DNA of 64,000 nt, filler included, from Basidiobolus ranarum (Eukaryota): the NCBI GenBank assembly GCA_040143965.1. It is 19 parts of 19 records of this genome, joined end to end, with 100 filler letters (N's around TTAATTAATTAA, not from the genome) between each part and the next. Parts side by side here need not be neighbours in the genome. Positions count along the whole stretch, not along the records: positions 27,156 to 30,441 come from JASJQH010009465.1; 18 more parts are not named here. One strand, given 5' to 3'. Numbering within the stretch: position 1 is the first letter of the stretch; each line of letters opens with the position of its first letter. The notes beneath the pieces were generated by a model, which saw only the letters and a program-made list of their open reading frames with translations, made no database searches and was not told the DNA's origin. The position numbers and the translations under genes were made by a program. Of the stretch, positions 3,302 through 47,918 are shown in pieces.

Positions 3302-3401
3302 NNNNNNNNNNNNNNNNNNNNNNNNNNNNNNNNNNNNNNNNNNNNTTAATTAATTAANNNNNNNNNNNNNNNNNNNNNNNNNNNNNNNNNNNNNNNNNNN
3401 N
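3302..3401. other. Artificial contig linker (first of 18)
   Basis: 100 nt of N with a central TTAATTAATTAA (stops in all six frames). Other copies start at 6702, 10100, 13496, 16890, 20280, 23669, 27056, 30442, 33827, 37209, 40590, 43966, 47341, 50716, 54088, 57459 and 60830. The contigs between them fall in length from 3300 to 3271 bp. Confidence 0.99.
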
Positions 3402-5310: not shown

Positions 5311-6801
5311 TTTTTAACCTCAGTTCTATAGAATAATTTGACAGACAAATGAGCGATGTATTTTGCAGCAAATGAAGTTCGATGTTCGTCGGCTCAGTCT
5401 ACCGACAAGTATAACGGTTGTATCACAAAATAAGAGTGGTCGCGTGGTATGCTAACTTGAACGCGTCTAGGTAATAATTCTAGAACGTGATTATTTGGGT
5501 AGCTATCGAGATATGGTTTCGAGAAGTCAACAAGAATGTTGCAAAACAGAGTTACTAACAAATCCGGGCTCCTTATCTTAAGAGTTATGATCCCCGAGTC
5601 AACAGCTTAGGGATCCATTTTGGGAAAATAGCCCCTTTTATAAAAATCACTTGAGGGAACAGAAAACAAACTGAAATCACCAAAATGATGATGTGTATTC
5701 TAAAATAGCGGAAATATTCCATCCTGAAACCCGCACAAAATCGCCTGAATCGAGTATTTTATATGCTATAAAGTTGGGTGTGACTTGAATTGAGGTGACC
5801 TTGTGAGCACGATCACAAGACAGTAAAGAGCTCAGGTAGCACATTTTCAAGTGAAATTGTCGAGGAGCTTAAGAGTTTTAGACAAAAACAATGAATAAAA
5901 TGAATCGGATCTTTTTGCTAGATTTCCGATAGATTTTGGTTTGTTTGTAAACAAACGATTATATCAATGAGGGTGGGACAGCATGATTGTTCATTTATGG
6001 TAACCCTTTGTTCCATTTTGCACACTTCGCTGAATAGCGTCGCAATTCAATTATGTTCCTATTCAATCAGCCATCTCCGACTTCAAGCTCGCGATGGGGA
6101 TTTATTTGTTTGTTCTTCGCCCAAATAACGAACCCTCTGCATACACCTTCGTCCGGCTGTAATGCAAATCCAAGAAGGCGGATAATTCACCAGGGCGCAT
6201 CTACAGGAGCTATTGAGGATACGTGGCAGGCCTGACCCTTACCGGATACCAGGTTGACCGCCCCTCCCGATGATTTTCACCCAGCAACTAGATCACTTCT
6301 GCTTGGTGGGATCAGCCCGAGTTACCTCGTGGATATTACTCCTGAGTTACGTCATTGCTGGGGTTCTGGTTTTTAATTCCTCATGTAGCTTTCACTTTGC
6401 CCATCATAATGAAGACATTTAGAACTCACATGCCTCGAATAGCCATCAAGGCCGTGTGTCTCACATTCGATAGCCAGACTGGATTGGTTATGAACCTTGA
6501 ACAATGCTCACTGAAGAACACCTTAACTGTAGACAAAGTATTGAGTAGTTCATGCCACTGCCACTTTAAGTAAGGTGGCTTTATTTTGGATCTCACATTT
6601 CTTGGTGTGACTCTTGCCTGAAAGCCTTAGAGCTCGAGTGATTGGCACCGCATCCCGCCGCCTGTGCCCCACGGGTAATAATCGGATTTGAGGATGTACT
6701 GNNNNNNNNNNNNNNNNNNNNNNNNNNNNNNNNNNNNNNNNNNNNTTAATTAATTAANNNNNNNNNNNNNNNNNNNNNNNNNNNNNNNNNNNNNNNNNNN
6801 N

Positions 6802-27155: not shown

Positions 27156-27855
27156 GTCCTGGTTTGTTACAACCATAGCATAAACCTGGTTTCCTTCTTT
27201 TGTAACCTTTGTACTTGCCAAAGCTACATTTTCCAGCTCCAAAAAGAGCCACTTCCTCAGATTCTTATTCCAAATTCTTACTTCTGAGATGTTGCTCCAT
27301 TAGCCTTGGTACCACAAACTCCACAGACAACTTGTGAGATCTTGCTTCCAAAGCTGTGACCAAGTTTGAATACTGTTCTGGTAGACTACTTAAAAGAGTC
27401 ATAATGACATCTTCTTGACATAAAGTTGCACCAATATTTTTCAGTTGTTTTGCCAAAGATCTCACATTTGAAATATGTGTAACCATGCTTTCAGACTTTT
27501 CCATCTTTATATTGAAGAATTTTTGTCTGAGAAAAAATCTATCAGCAAGACTCTTTGCTTCACAACACTCTTCCAATATAGTCCAAGCTTGATGGGAAGT
27601 CTTTGCATATTGAATATTCACAAGTTGTGAGTCCTTCAAACTTTGACAAATAACATTAAAGGCCTTCTTGTCACTTTTCTTGCATGCTTCCAATAAAGAA
27701 GGGTCAGAAGGTTTCTTTTCATCTCCAGAGACTACATCCCAAAGCCCCCTGTCTTTGAGTATGATTTGCATCTTGAACTTCCAGATATTGTAACATTCTT
27801 TGTCAAGCTTTTCAACACTTGAGTTAATAAAGATAGTAGTAGTGGTTTATGTCAT
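27156..27855 (-). mobile_element. Ty1/copia gag (family A)
   Basis: WKFKMQIILKDRGLW..LLSSLPEQYSNLVTALE followed by a zinc-knuckle remnant. Near-identical sibling at 37309-37795. Confidence 0.9.
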
Positions 27856-27875
27856 GCTGTAAAGGTTAGAACATG

Positions 27876-28264
27876 GGGCTCAAAACCTATTGGGAAAATA
27901 TGGGCTGTTTGGTGGAACTTTAAAAAAGTGCATTTGTTAATAGCTTTGTGAGATAATTGTTTATTGTCTAGAAATAAAGCATTTATACATTTTGGTGGAA
28001 ATACAGAAAACTAACACTGGGGTTGGGTTCAGAACATCTGTGGGAGTAAAATGAGCTATTCTTGGAGCATTTTGGATGAGTTTGAAATTTCCAATATGGA
28101 ATTGCTAATTCTCACATTTTTCACATATATATATATTATATTTTTTGATTTTCAGCTGAGTGATATTTGACTAAGTAATGTTAACTAACTTATATGTGAT
28201 ATATGAAATAGTAGGTGTATAAAGAAAGAGATAACAAATATGATAAAGACAATAAATTTCAACA
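27876..28264 (-). repeat. 5' LTR of family A (27888-28264) plus PBS (27876-27887)
   Basis: On the minus strand it reads TGTTGAAA...TTCCCAATA then GGTTTTGAGCCC. It aligns end to end with 32659-33033. Confidence 0.85.
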
Positions 28265-29198
28265 GAAAATACATACTAATAATGGTGGTAAATATACTTC
28301 AACACTATTTAAGCATTTTGCAAAGTTCATGGAATTAAGCCAGAAACTACTGCCTCCTATTCACCTCAATCAAATGGAGTTACCAAAAGAGCTAATAGCA
28401 CTATAACAGTAATGGCAAGATCTATGATTAATGCACAAGATATATCTCATAATATTTGGGTGGAATCTGTTGCTACAGCTGTATATCTGAAAAACAGGAG
28501 TTCTACTAGAAATCTGTCTAACGCTACACTATATAAAGCTTGGTTTGAAGGTCCGCATGATGTATAACAATTGACAATCTTTGGATGAATTGCGTATCTC
28601 AAAATTATGACCAAAAATTGGCCTAAATTGATCCAAAAAGTGATAAATGCTTATTTCTGGGTTATTTACTCAAAACAAGGTCTACAGACTCTTTAATACA
28701 AGAATTTCCAAGTTATTCAAGTCCACAATTGTTTTGTTAAATGAAAAAGAAAAAGCTTCATCAAAAATGACCCAACATGATGACAAGAATCAATGTTCTC
28801 CTGATCCAATCATTAAAATTGATTCAAATTAAAATAATGAAGAAAATTGAGGAGATATATATGGACAAGCCAGATGGCTTCATGGACCCAAAAGACCCTA
28901 AAAAAGTTTCAGACTCCAGAAAACACTCTATGGCTTGAAACAATCTCCAAGAGCTTGGAATATCATGATAAACACTTTTTTGGAAAAACTCAAATTCCAA
29001 AAAATAATGCTGACTATAGTATCTGCTTCAGGCTAAAGACAAATCCAGTTTTGTTAGCCAAATATGTAGATGATCTTATTATAGCAACCAATGACTTGAA
29101 GACTTTGGAGAAAACCAAATCCAGCTTATCTGCCAAATTCAAAATGACTCTCTTGGTGATCAGACATACTATCTTGGAAACCAAATAAAGATAGATAA
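28265..29198 (+). mobile_element. Degenerate Ty1/copia integrase and RT fragments (family B, internally deleted)
   Basis: HTNNGGKYTS, NQNG..KRAN and LAKYVDDLII motifs. Collinear with 61063-62540. Confidence 0.85.
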
Positions 29199-29480
29199 TG
29201 TTGAAAGTCAGGTGACTTGTGTTACATGCAGTAATTCCCAAAGAGGAAAATATGGAGTATGGTGACTGCATCTGAACACAAAGCTTAATACCAATCAGTT
29301 GCTTGTATAGCTGAAATGCCAAAGTACCATACATTGGCAGACTAGGTTAAGGTTCCCTAGCAATATAGGCAGAGCATACAAGGACTGGTAGCTCAGTGGT
29401 TAGAGCACCTTGCTTGAGTGAAGGAGGTCCCAGGTTCAAATCCTGGCCAGACCAATATTTCTCCCTAAATAATTTCAATA
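29199..29480 (+). repeat. 282-bp LTR-like unit containing a tRNA-like sequence
   Basis: Termini TGTTGAAA...TTTCAATA form an 8-bp inverted repeat with 1 mismatch. It interrupts the copia RT, compared with the uninterrupted sibling near 62540. Confidence 0.6.
29382..29454 (+). tRNA. tRNA-like cloverleaf, probably a pseudogene or element-borne; nominal anticodon TGA
   Basis: Acceptor GGACTGG/CCAGACC, D-arm GCTC-AGTGGTTA-GAGC, anticodon arm CCTTG-CTTGAGT-GAAGG, T-arm CCAGG-TTCAAAT-CCTGG. A and B boxes are intact; there is no long variable arm. Confidence 0.75.
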
Positions 29481-30441
29481 GTTTGTTATTGCAGATCAAA
29501 GAAATGGGTTTCAAAGAAAAAGGAAGCATATAATACCATTAAAAGAGGAAATGAATACTATATACTTATGGCAACCTCTAAATCAAGAAATGACTTTGCT
29601 GATATATGGATTGTGGATTCTGGTGATAGTGATCATATGAGTCATAATAGAAATGTAATTCTTGACTATAAGGAAATAGAATCTCTGGACATCATGGTAG
29701 CTGGAAGGAACAAACTAGTTGCATATGGATTGGCAAAGTGACACTTGACTTACAAATTAGTAAAACCAAAAGTGTAAAGGTAACCTTGGAAAATGTCAAA
29801 TATATTCCATCATTTGCAACAAATCTTCTTTCAATTGGAGCAATTGAAAAGAAACATTATGATGTCAAATTCAGCCAAGAAAAAGCAACCATATACAAAT
29901 CAAAGGACTTGAAAGTGGCAACTGGAACAAGAATTGGGAATCTATATCATCTAGATATTGCATTGACAATTGAGACTGTTTCTAACTTTGCAACAAGTAC
30001 TTCTGGAAAGTGGATGACCTGGCACCAGTGCTTGGGTTATTTAAACTATAATAGTGTGAACCTATTATTCAAAAAAAGCCTATGTACTGGAATGGATCTT
30101 GAGCCCTCAGATATTACCAATTGTGAAAGCTGTATTCAAGGGAGAATCATCAGAAAATCATTTCCAAAAGAAGGAGCTAGCAGAGCCAGAGACTTATGGA
30201 TCTTATTCATACAGACTAATGTGGCCTAATGCAAACTCTGACACTAAGTAAGTGACAATATTTACTCATCTTTATTGATGATAAATCACACTTCATGGTT
30301 TCATATCTTCTGTTGAGCAAAGGAGAAGTGTATCATTATTTCAAGATATATGAAGCAATGGTCACAGCCTTAACAGGAAGAGAAATCAAATACCTACACA
30401 GTAATAATGGAACTGAAAGTAGCAATGAAGCCATGACTAGC
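29481..30441 (+). mobile_element. Ty1/copia protease, GAG-pre-integrase and integrase fragment
   Basis: WIVDSGDSDHMSH, LENVKYIPSFATNLLSIG, WHQCLGY..CESCIQG, HTD.CGLM, HSNNGTE. Confidence 0.88.
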
Positions 30442-41349: not shown

Positions 41350-42160
41350 TGTTGAAATTAGGTAAATACCAACTCATTAATTAGTAGTCAGTTCATTCTT
41401 GTTCTGATTATTTAGCACTCAATTCTGTCATTGAAAAATGTGTGTTTATTGCTCTAATTGATAGAAATATTGATTGGAATACTTTTGCCAATTTTCAGTG
41501 CTTTATCAAAGCTTCTCCAAATCACCTCAAATTTTAACTCATGCTTGACAGAGAAGTTTTTTATGATCTCAGCATATCCAAAAGTCCTGCTTTATAGTAA
41601 ACTATAAACAGCACATATTCAATTCAACATAATATATGTGTCCAATTCCCAAATCCAAATCTTGTGCAAAACACTTCCAAATCCCCTCAACTCTTTTATC
41701 AGGTAATGAGCCCCAAACTTGCTGTTGACAGAATGTCTACCAGTACTATTTCAAGTTTTTTGCCTCTGTGAAGAAGTTTGATGGTGAAGACTTTCACCTT
41801 TGGAAGTTCAAGATGTAAAAAGTGCCAGAAGACAAGGACATTTTGCAATTTGTTACATGAGAAGAAATAGAACAAAAGGTATTACCAGAAGCTATCCTTA
41901 CCTTTCACAAGAACCAGAGGAAAGCACCCTCTACATTTTGTCTACATCTCAGAGACTCTCAATTAAGACTCATACAATCAGCCAAAAATATCCAAAATGG
42001 TTGGGAAACACTTGAGGGATTATATGAGACTAAAAGCCTAGCTAATGGGCTATATCTTAGGCAAAAATATACTTAATTCAGATGAATTTATATGATTCCT
42101 TGCTTAATAATATATATCTGTTAAAAGCTGTGGCAGATCAGCTCATCCATTGGAGCACCT
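41350..42160 (+). mobile_element. Copia 5' LTR (41350-41701), PBS (41702-41713) and decayed gag
   Basis: TGTTGAAA...TATCA, then GGTAATGAGCCC, then ATG..KKFDGEDFHLWKFKM. Confidence 0.82.
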
Positions 42161-47440: not shown

Positions 47441-47918
47441 CTCCAGTTTACCAAGCTTCTGTCAGTTTGGATGGTACATGTGGGAACGGAGTCGAATGTC
47501 CTACCGGATCTTGCTGTTCTACTTGGGGCTTCTGTGGTACTGGATCGGCATTTTGTAGTGGCAATGGAGGGAATGGCAACGCTAACAGTGACGGTAATGG
47601 AGGGAATGACAACGCTAGCAGTGATGGGAATGGAGGGAATGGCAACACTAACAGTGATGGCAATGGAAATGGGAATGGTGGCGGCAACAGTGATACTAGT
47701 AACCCAAATCATGATCACCAAACACCGCAGAACCAATCTAATCCTGAAAATTCTCTGGAAGTACACCCCAACAACCAACAGCAACTACTCCAGTAGCCAG
47801 CAATCCCGCTCCAGCCCCAAGTAATAATAACCATCCAAACGGAGGAGAATCACTTTTCACACCCCTAACAGTATTGAGTGGTGTAGCCATAGTGTTAGCT
47901 GGGTATTTAAGTCACTAA
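47441..47918 (+). CDS. Hevein/CBM18 chitin-binding protein with Gly-Asn linker and a GPI-like tail out of frame (5' truncated)
   Basis: DGTCGNGVECPTGSCCSTWGFCGTGSAFC is CBM18. After a frameshift near 47752 the reading continues SGSTPQQPTATTP..NGGESLFTPLTVLSGVAIVLAGYLSH*. Confidence 0.8.

Follow-up and report, generated by a model that had tools for sequence, protein, structure and literature searches.

How a sequence that reads as a tRNA comes to lie inside what looks like an LTR is the question raised by a 282-bp unit (29199-29480, plus strand) of the Basidiobolus ranarum genome (assembly GCA_040143965.1), where it is found amid the debris of copia-type retrotransposons. The preliminary description of this DNA had proposed that an LTR carries a Pol III cassette derived from a tRNA and had seen in it a tRNA counterpart of the plant Cassandra elements. 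The anatomy that we have found fits this proposal and matches that of the Helenus (TRIMp3) elements (Kojima, 2024; PMC10886601), whereas the copy itself is decayed and stands single in the stretch analysed. The unit is real, but its kind was already published in 2024. It is probably a solo LTR in a state of decay, or all that is left, of a Helenus-type (TRIMp3) LTR retrotransposon that was non-autonomous, and would add to Helenus either a new member or a copy not yet listed, at most a family not yet listed.

Helenus elements are TRIMs with a tRNA-like sequence in their LTRs, and 113 families have been described in rust fungi (Kojima, 2024; PMC10886601). In the TRIM structure, two LTRs enclose a short internal part in which PBS and PPT lie, the whole measuring 311-1263 bp. 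Helenus is held to be mobilised by Copia, and the fungal families have 5-bp TSDs (Kojima, 2024; PMC10886601). Many of the families persist only as solo LTRs, and families known from solo LTRs alone have been accepted by the same author. Transcription of Helenus by Pol III is so far a proposal for every family (Kojima, 2024; PMC10886601).

The Window and Its CpG Decay

The window, by which we mean the whole stretch of 64,000 nucleotides that was analysed, consists of 19 contigs in descending order of length (3,301 down to about 3,271 bp), the final one being cut at the window end. The contigs are joined by 18 linkers of the form N44-TTAATTAATTAA-N44 (3302-3401, 6702-6801 and so forth up to 60830-60929), and adjacent pieces of the window are therefore not neighbours in the genome. 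The contig that is home to the 282-bp unit (27156-30441) is made of repeat fragments only and holds 3 CpG per 3,286 bases, which corresponds to an observed-to-expected ratio (o/e) of 0.03. Across the window, the CpG o/e has been found to be two-peaked, with 0.02-0.13 in the 10 repeat contigs vs. 0.56-0.80 in the 9 gene-bearing contigs, and both TpG and CpA are in excess in the 10 repeat contigs. This gap between repeat and gene contigs points to a CpG-targeted mutation by which the repeats of this genome have been altered almost to completion. The unit itself is wholly devoid of CpG, in agreement with the CpG decay that had been described for it.

The gene-bearing part of the window offers two observations of its own. 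At 47559-47691, in a gene-bearing contig, a 33-nt tandem repeat with 4 copies listed would encode a Gly/Asn-rich stretch. On the minus strand of 55937-57457, an unbroken frame of 506 codons that reaches the contig end corresponds to a concentrative nucleoside transporter (Nucleos_tra2_N, Gate, Nucleos_tra2_C), whose closest Atlas cluster carries mostly an Ascomycota label.

Copia LTR Families as Comparators

Three copia LTR families have been delimited in the window, namely R, S and a third LTR. They start with TGTTGAA[AG], or with TGTGGAAA in one decayed copy, and end with CAATA, TTTAACA or TTTATCA, directly followed by GGT[TA][AT]TGAGCCC. Family R has two minus-strand copies, one from 28264 to 27888 and one from 33033 to 32659, which are 86% alike, and in addition a 40-nt end piece (61023-61062); it starts with TGTTGAA[AG]T and ends with CCCAATA or CCAAATA. 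The first of these copies (27888-28264, minus strand, 377 bp, starting with TGTTGAAAT and ending with CCCAATA) is a true copia 5′ LTR and has served as comparator; after it come the PBS GGTTTTGAGCCC (27887-27876) and then gag (27846-27265), in which Retrotran_gag_2 scores 146.8 bits. An Atlas search with the copia gag of the window gave plant-labelled clusters. Family S is found from 54786 on, from 59398 down to 59049, and from 63254 on, with the start TGTTGAAG and, in the other two copies, TGTGGAAA and TGTTAAGA; it ends with TTTAACA, after which the minus-strand copy shows the exact GGTTATGAGCCC. The third LTR (41350-41701) has a TGTTGAAAT start and a TTTATCA end, and continues with GGTAATGAGCCC. 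The copia PBS of the window is thus GGTTATGAGCCC or a one-mismatch variant of it, located at 59037-59048 (minus strand), 41702-41713 (plus strand) and 27876-27887 (minus strand). This type of PBS matches the anticodon loop of the initiator tRNA, not its 3′ end, and the same type has been reported for most fungal Helenus families as well as for Copia of Pucciniales (Kojima, 2024; PMC10886601). Taken by themselves, this PBS type, the CpG pattern and the clusters nearest to the nucleoside transporter would suggest a rust-type fungus as host, whereas the gag clusters bear plant labels.

In view of these starts and ends, the preliminary description was correct in ascribing to the unit the same terminal style as to the other LTRs, yet these lie in unrelated contigs. 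Membership of the unit in family S (54786, 59398, 63254) has been considered and rejected, the alignment giving no real likeness past the first bases.

Ends and Flanks of the Unit

On its left, the unit adjoins a copia fragment that extends from the C-terminal part of the integrase to the middle of the RT and is cut at the LTR (28266-29198, plus strand). By BLASTN, this fragment matches a second copia copy of the window, the likeness being 79.7% between 28266-28847 and 61063-61645 and 82.1% between 28850-29197 and 62193-62544. The RVT_2 match in this flank (E 9.4e-7, 29.1 bits) is under the Pfam cut-off of 31.6, and it is chiefly by its DNA similarity to the other copia copy that the flank is predicted to be RT. 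The DNA similarity to 62193-62544 (82%) ends at 29197/29198, while that other copy continues as RT; in the pairwise alignment, the similarity holds through ...GATAGATAA and collapses where TGTTGAAA starts, so that the left end of the unit is a homology break. With 16 occurrences of the motif TGTTGAA[AG] among 124,832 strand positions, the chance that one of these falls no more than 2 nt from the break is about 6e-4. The left end of the unit is more than chance. Regarding the earlier statement that the unit interrupts a copia RT, it is the left side on which it stands, by virtue of the homology break; on the right, a protease/integrase fragment has been found instead.

The exactness of this left end also bears on the integrity of the assembly. 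The 3.3-kb contig might be a chimera that joins reads of different repeats, in which case the context of the unit would be artificial and the tRNA-like sequence nonetheless real, and it suits such an origin that this is one of 19 short unplaced contigs and consists wholly of repeat fragments. A join made by an assembler, however, has no reason to hit an LTR terminus motif exactly, and we regard a chimera as very unlikely.

The two copies of the copia family on the left (about 80% alike) start at the identical integrase position, each against LTR family R. At the junction 28264/28266, it is the 5′ end of R in reverse orientation that is met, and at the junction 61062/61063 the last 40 nt of R in forward orientation; a third contig (57559-57589) begins with the first of these junction types.

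The right end of the unit, TTTCAATA, matches the perfect inverted partner of the start 8-mer at 7 of 8 positions. An inverted-partner 8-mer of at least 7/8 is expected with a chance of 2.3% over 22 positions when the limit is set by a decayed Zn-knuckle remnant, recognised by eye only, from 29484, and with a chance that we estimate at about 10% when the limit is the BLASTP-supported homology to another copia protein of the window, which begins at about 29562. A search for closer copia relatives by which to fix this boundary gave only 2 distant proteins, of 36% and 29% identity. The right boundary of the unit is less firmly fixed than the left. Beyond it, a different copia fragment follows up to the contig end (29481-30441, plus strand), with the protease and then the N-terminal part of the integrase (Pol_BBD and gag_pre-integrs). 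The two flanks do not continue one another, since integrase to RT is found on the left, and protease to the N-terminal part of the integrase on the right. Around the unit no 5-bp TSD is present (GATAA vs. GTTTG), and both the missing TSD and the origin of the flanks from different elements agree with what had been described. No PBS, PPT or second LTR adjoins the unit, these being features that a solo LTR is unable to display, and no second copy of it exists within the window. The ends TGTTGAAA and TTTCAATA that had been assigned to the 282-bp unit were confirmed at 29199-29480, and its designation as a Helenus-type solo LTR, or as the remnant of an LTR, is built on the homology break on the left, on termini like those of the copia LTRs of the window and of published fungal Helenus families, and on a length in the published range.

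The copia fragment on the right (29481-30441) suggests a further reading, in which the unit would be the 5′ LTR of this protein-coding, gag-deleted element, and LTRs with a tRNA-like part would then not be a property of miniature elements only. LTR and fragment lie on one strand and adjoin directly, and by eye there is a loose resemblance between the bases next to the LTR, GTTATTGCAGATC, and the 'cattatcagtac' type of PBS in some Helenus internal parts (Kojima, 2024; PMC10886601). Against this, there is no clear PBS after the LTR, nearly all of gag is missing, with the protease motif already about 130 nt past the LTR, and the autonomous partners of Helenus must, as Kojima argues, use Pol II LTRs (PMC10886601). 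We consider this reading highly improbable. Taken more broadly, namely that the tRNA-bearing LTR is either the 5′ LTR of the following protein-coding copia fragment or else belongs to a Helenus lineage not yet described, in which the tRNA-like part is of type I and lacks a variable arm, the idea is still quite unlikely.

Read as a Helenus-type solo LTR, which we prefer, the unit starts with an upstream part of 183 bp (29199-29381, plus strand) that is U3-like in its presumed role. This part contains 0 CpG and a TATA-like CAATATAGG at about 29362-29370, and has no BLASTN match elsewhere in the window. Downstream of the tRNA-like sequence, the unit closes with a U5-like tail of 26 nt (29455-29480, plus strand), which reads TTTCT at the place of the T4 run of the consensuses and ends with TTTCAATA; judged by eye, the published tails measure about 23-28 nt (LTR-1_PGr, Helenus-1_MAec, Helenus-2_MLP).

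The tRNA-Like Sequence

The tRNA-like sequence of 73 nt (29382-29454, plus strand) is the sole tRNA call of ARAGORN in the whole window, where it is classified as Ser with the anticodon tga. It is also the sole Rfam match at gathering score in the window (tRNA, 61.4 bits at a threshold of 29, model positions 1-71 of 71). With E up to 5, Rfam returns 5 matches in the whole window, of which only the two at the locus 29382-29454 are tRNA-related; the second of these is weak, lies on the opposite strand, belongs to a plastid 5′ UTR model and has been taken as meaningless. Box A, TAGCTCAGTGG (29389-29399, plus strand), and box B, GGTTCAAATCC (29433-29443, plus strand), were read from the sequence, the former fitting the TRGCY...YGG pattern of Helenus and the latter the GGTTC that is conserved there (Kojima, 2024; PMC10886601).

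Much of what had been said of this part is borne out by these results, i.e., its extent of 73 nt with boxes A and B, the TGA at the anticodon position without the long variable arm of tRNA-Ser, and an end 26 nt before 29480 that is not followed by four or more T, as no T run exceeds TTT within the 66 nt that come next. The acceptor stem, in contrast, had been described as still pairing, whereas the Rfam alignment reveals one non-standard pair in it (3-70) and another one in the anticodon stem (31-39). The MFE fold of the tRNA-like part has not been found to be stabler than that of shuffled sequences (z = -1.05), as 28 of 200 shuffles reach an equal or better fold. Its 73 nt contain 0 CpG at a G+C content of 55%.

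A functional nuclear tRNA gene is rejected on the grounds of a TGA anticodon without the Ser variable arm, two non-standard pairs, no T4 and 0 CpG. The sequence could still descend from a former tRNA gene or pseudogene of the host that has come to lie amid retrotransposon debris, with terminal 8-mers that are due to chance or to a truncated LTR upstream. Copia/Ty1-type elements target tRNA genes in yeasts, and the right end of the unit is weakly significant, as such an origin would have it. However, a TGA anticodon in a body without a Ser-type variable arm does not belong to a normal tRNA, a T4 terminator is missing, and CpG is absent at 55% G+C, while the gene contigs retain it. Moreover, the left terminus coincides exactly with the homology break and has its 7/8 inverted partner at the distance typical of Helenus, and a host tRNA gene is hence a most improbable source.

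A metagenome scan with a degenerate 32-nt pattern drawn from the 3′ half of the tRNA-like sequence gave at least 120 matching stretches. Among the matches listed, the 25 commonest distinct 73-mers are all CpG-intact and, judging from their anticodon loops, prokaryote-type tRNA-Ala-like, some of them with introns. With the CpGs in place, the 3′ half of the tRNA-like part is identical to many such prokaryote-type tRNA-Ala-like genes, and the tRNA-like part is therefore nearer to an Ala-type body than to Ser. No LTR relative is present among the scan matches listed, and in a literature search no mention of the 20-nt box-A string was found. The further suggestion of a self-primer is not supported, as the tRNA-like part has no complement of its 3′ end anywhere in the window outside itself, and Kojima likewise describes the Helenus tRNA-like sequences as not complementary to their PBSs (PMC10886601).

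It could finally be supposed that an ordinary copia-type LTR has received a SINE or a tRNA retro-pseudogene as a one-off insertion in this copy, the family being devoid of the tRNA-like part. The single copy within the window is in line with this supposition, and events of the kind do occur, given that the proposed origin of Helenus is a SINE2 insertion into an LTR (Kojima, 2024; PMC10886601). Around 29382-29454, though, neither a SINE body nor an A-rich or simple-repeat tail nor a TSD is visible, and the tRNA-like part occupies the very place that is typical of the published Helenus families, 26 nt from the end and followed by a T-rich stretch. We consider a one-off insertion unlikely.

Proposed History of the Copy and Its Significance

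For the Helenus-type family to which the unit probably belongs, a mode of propagation can be sketched in analogy to the proposal of Kojima (2024) and to Cassandra. In the tRNA-like part, boxes A and B would recruit TFIIIC and Pol III, and transcription would start in the 5′ LTR, where the tRNA-like part begins or close by. Passing over the weak T-run, the transcript would take in the PBS, short internal part and PPT before ending past the tRNA-like part of the 3′ LTR. As transcription would run from the tRNA-like part of the 5′ LTR to that of the 3′ LTR, the tRNA-like part would thus act as the repeated R region, and by our own inference read-through of the 5′ LTR would require that a short T-run terminate transcription only leakily. 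The family RNA would then be reverse-transcribed and integrated by the proteins of autonomous Copia elements.

The history of the copy itself can be followed in part. The 282-bp unit has inserted into a copia RT, as is evident from the homology break. Because the flanks are unrelated and the TSD is missing, we infer that its partner LTR and the right-hand target were lost later, probably through recombination between elements or deletion, and because of such events a missing TSD would be expected. Afterwards, CpG mutation has proceeded throughout the unit, as it has in the surrounding repeats. On account of 0 CpG, two broken stem pairs and no T4, this copy is best seen as dead and as no longer a working Pol III unit, and any Pol III role would be that of the family, not of the decayed copy.

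Beyond annotation, the significance of the locus is small, in that another predicted 'tRNA-Ser-TGA' of a repeat-rich fungal genome probably turns out to be a retrotransposon LTR. Counts of tRNA genes should therefore be masked against LTRs of the Helenus type. In P. triticina (Puccinia triticina), Helenus copies account for 183 of the 189 predicted tRNA-Ser-TGA genes (Table 2 in Kojima, 2024; PMC10886601). As to whether Pol III really drives Helenus elements, a dead copy brings no advance.

Comparison With Known Systems

Among the known systems, the Cassandra TRIMs of plants resemble the unit in that the LTR of a miniature element encloses a small-RNA gene whose Pol III promoter is internal. 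Cassandra is the only TRIMp3 lineage with demonstrated transcripts (Kojima, 2024; PMC10886601). Its module is derived from 5S rRNA, not from a tRNA, and its hosts are plants; Cassandra membership of the unit has been rejected, Rfam giving no 5S match in the window at gathering score or with E up to 5. Ajax, a 5S-derived TRIM of nemerteans, and the retrozymes, which have hammerhead ribozymes in their LTRs, share with the unit the principle of a small functional-RNA module in non-autonomous LTRs, but have other modules and other hosts; with E up to 5, no ribozyme match was obtained by Rfam in the window either. The tRNA-derived SINEs (SINE2) begin with a tRNA-like head, in which boxes A and B are present, and likewise decay into calls of tRNA pseudogenes. 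They are, however, mobilised by LINEs and have TSDs of LINE type, whereas the unit would depend on a Copia integrase. Assignment to SINE2 has been rejected as well, for the tRNA-like part begins 183 nt inside the unit and only 26 nt come after it, with no body, A-rich or repeat tail, or TSD.

Helenus differs from the unit in several respects (Kojima, 2024; PMC10886601). The unit has no TSD, PBS or PPT, it reads TTTCT where the consensuses have TTTTC(T), and it is fully CpG-decayed. It is not near-identical to any of the DataS1 consensuses compared. The string comparison with DataS1 was carried out with four short strings of the unit, the remaining likeness being judged by eye. The 14-nt start string is absent from DataS1, and the 19-nt box-A string has one occurrence there, in a wasp family, and none in a fungal consensus of the supplement. 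The 14-nt box-B string is present in 3 places of DataS1, all from a rust (Cronartium), namely Helenus-4, -14 and -16_CroRib, and a fourth occurrence, which runs across a line break, was found by reading in Helenus-2_MLP. By eye, the T-arm and the beginning of the tail resemble those of Helenus-4_PGr, 4_PSt, 12_PHor, 2_MLP and 4/14/16_CroRib. The Helenus-4_PGr-like group, which is closest by eye, has a long variable arm, whereas the unit is without one.

The likenesses concern the LTR as a whole. In the fungal Helenus LTRs, the tRNA-like part lies near the 3′ end and is followed by a tail of 20-45 nt with a T4 run (Kojima, 2024; PMC10886601); in the unit, a tRNA-derived sequence with a box A of the form TRGCY..YGG and a GGTTC box B is likewise situated near the LTR 3′ end, with 26 nt remaining and a T-rich stretch after it. 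The fungal consensuses start mostly with tgttg (a few with tgtc, tgta or tatt) and end with ...aca or ...ata, several of them with ttcaata, as in 'gttcaata' of the LTR-1_PGr group and 'catttcaata' of Helenus-1_MAec (Kojima, 2024; PMC10886601), and the unit has both the tgttg start and the ...ttcaata end. Its 282 bp are inside the range of 106-284 bp given for fungal Helenus LTRs (fungal rows of Table S1 in PMC10886601). Its anticodon is at odds with the tRNA body, just as the isotype model of tRNAscan and the anticodon have been found to mismatch in many Helenus families (Kojima, 2024; PMC10886601). It is a lone LTR, as is common in Helenus, and Copia-type elements whose PBS corresponds to the anticodon loop of the initiator tRNA are present in the same genome. 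The Helenus class can thus be recognised from one decayed copy by its LTR termini, by the place of the tRNA-like part and by the copia PBS type of the genome.
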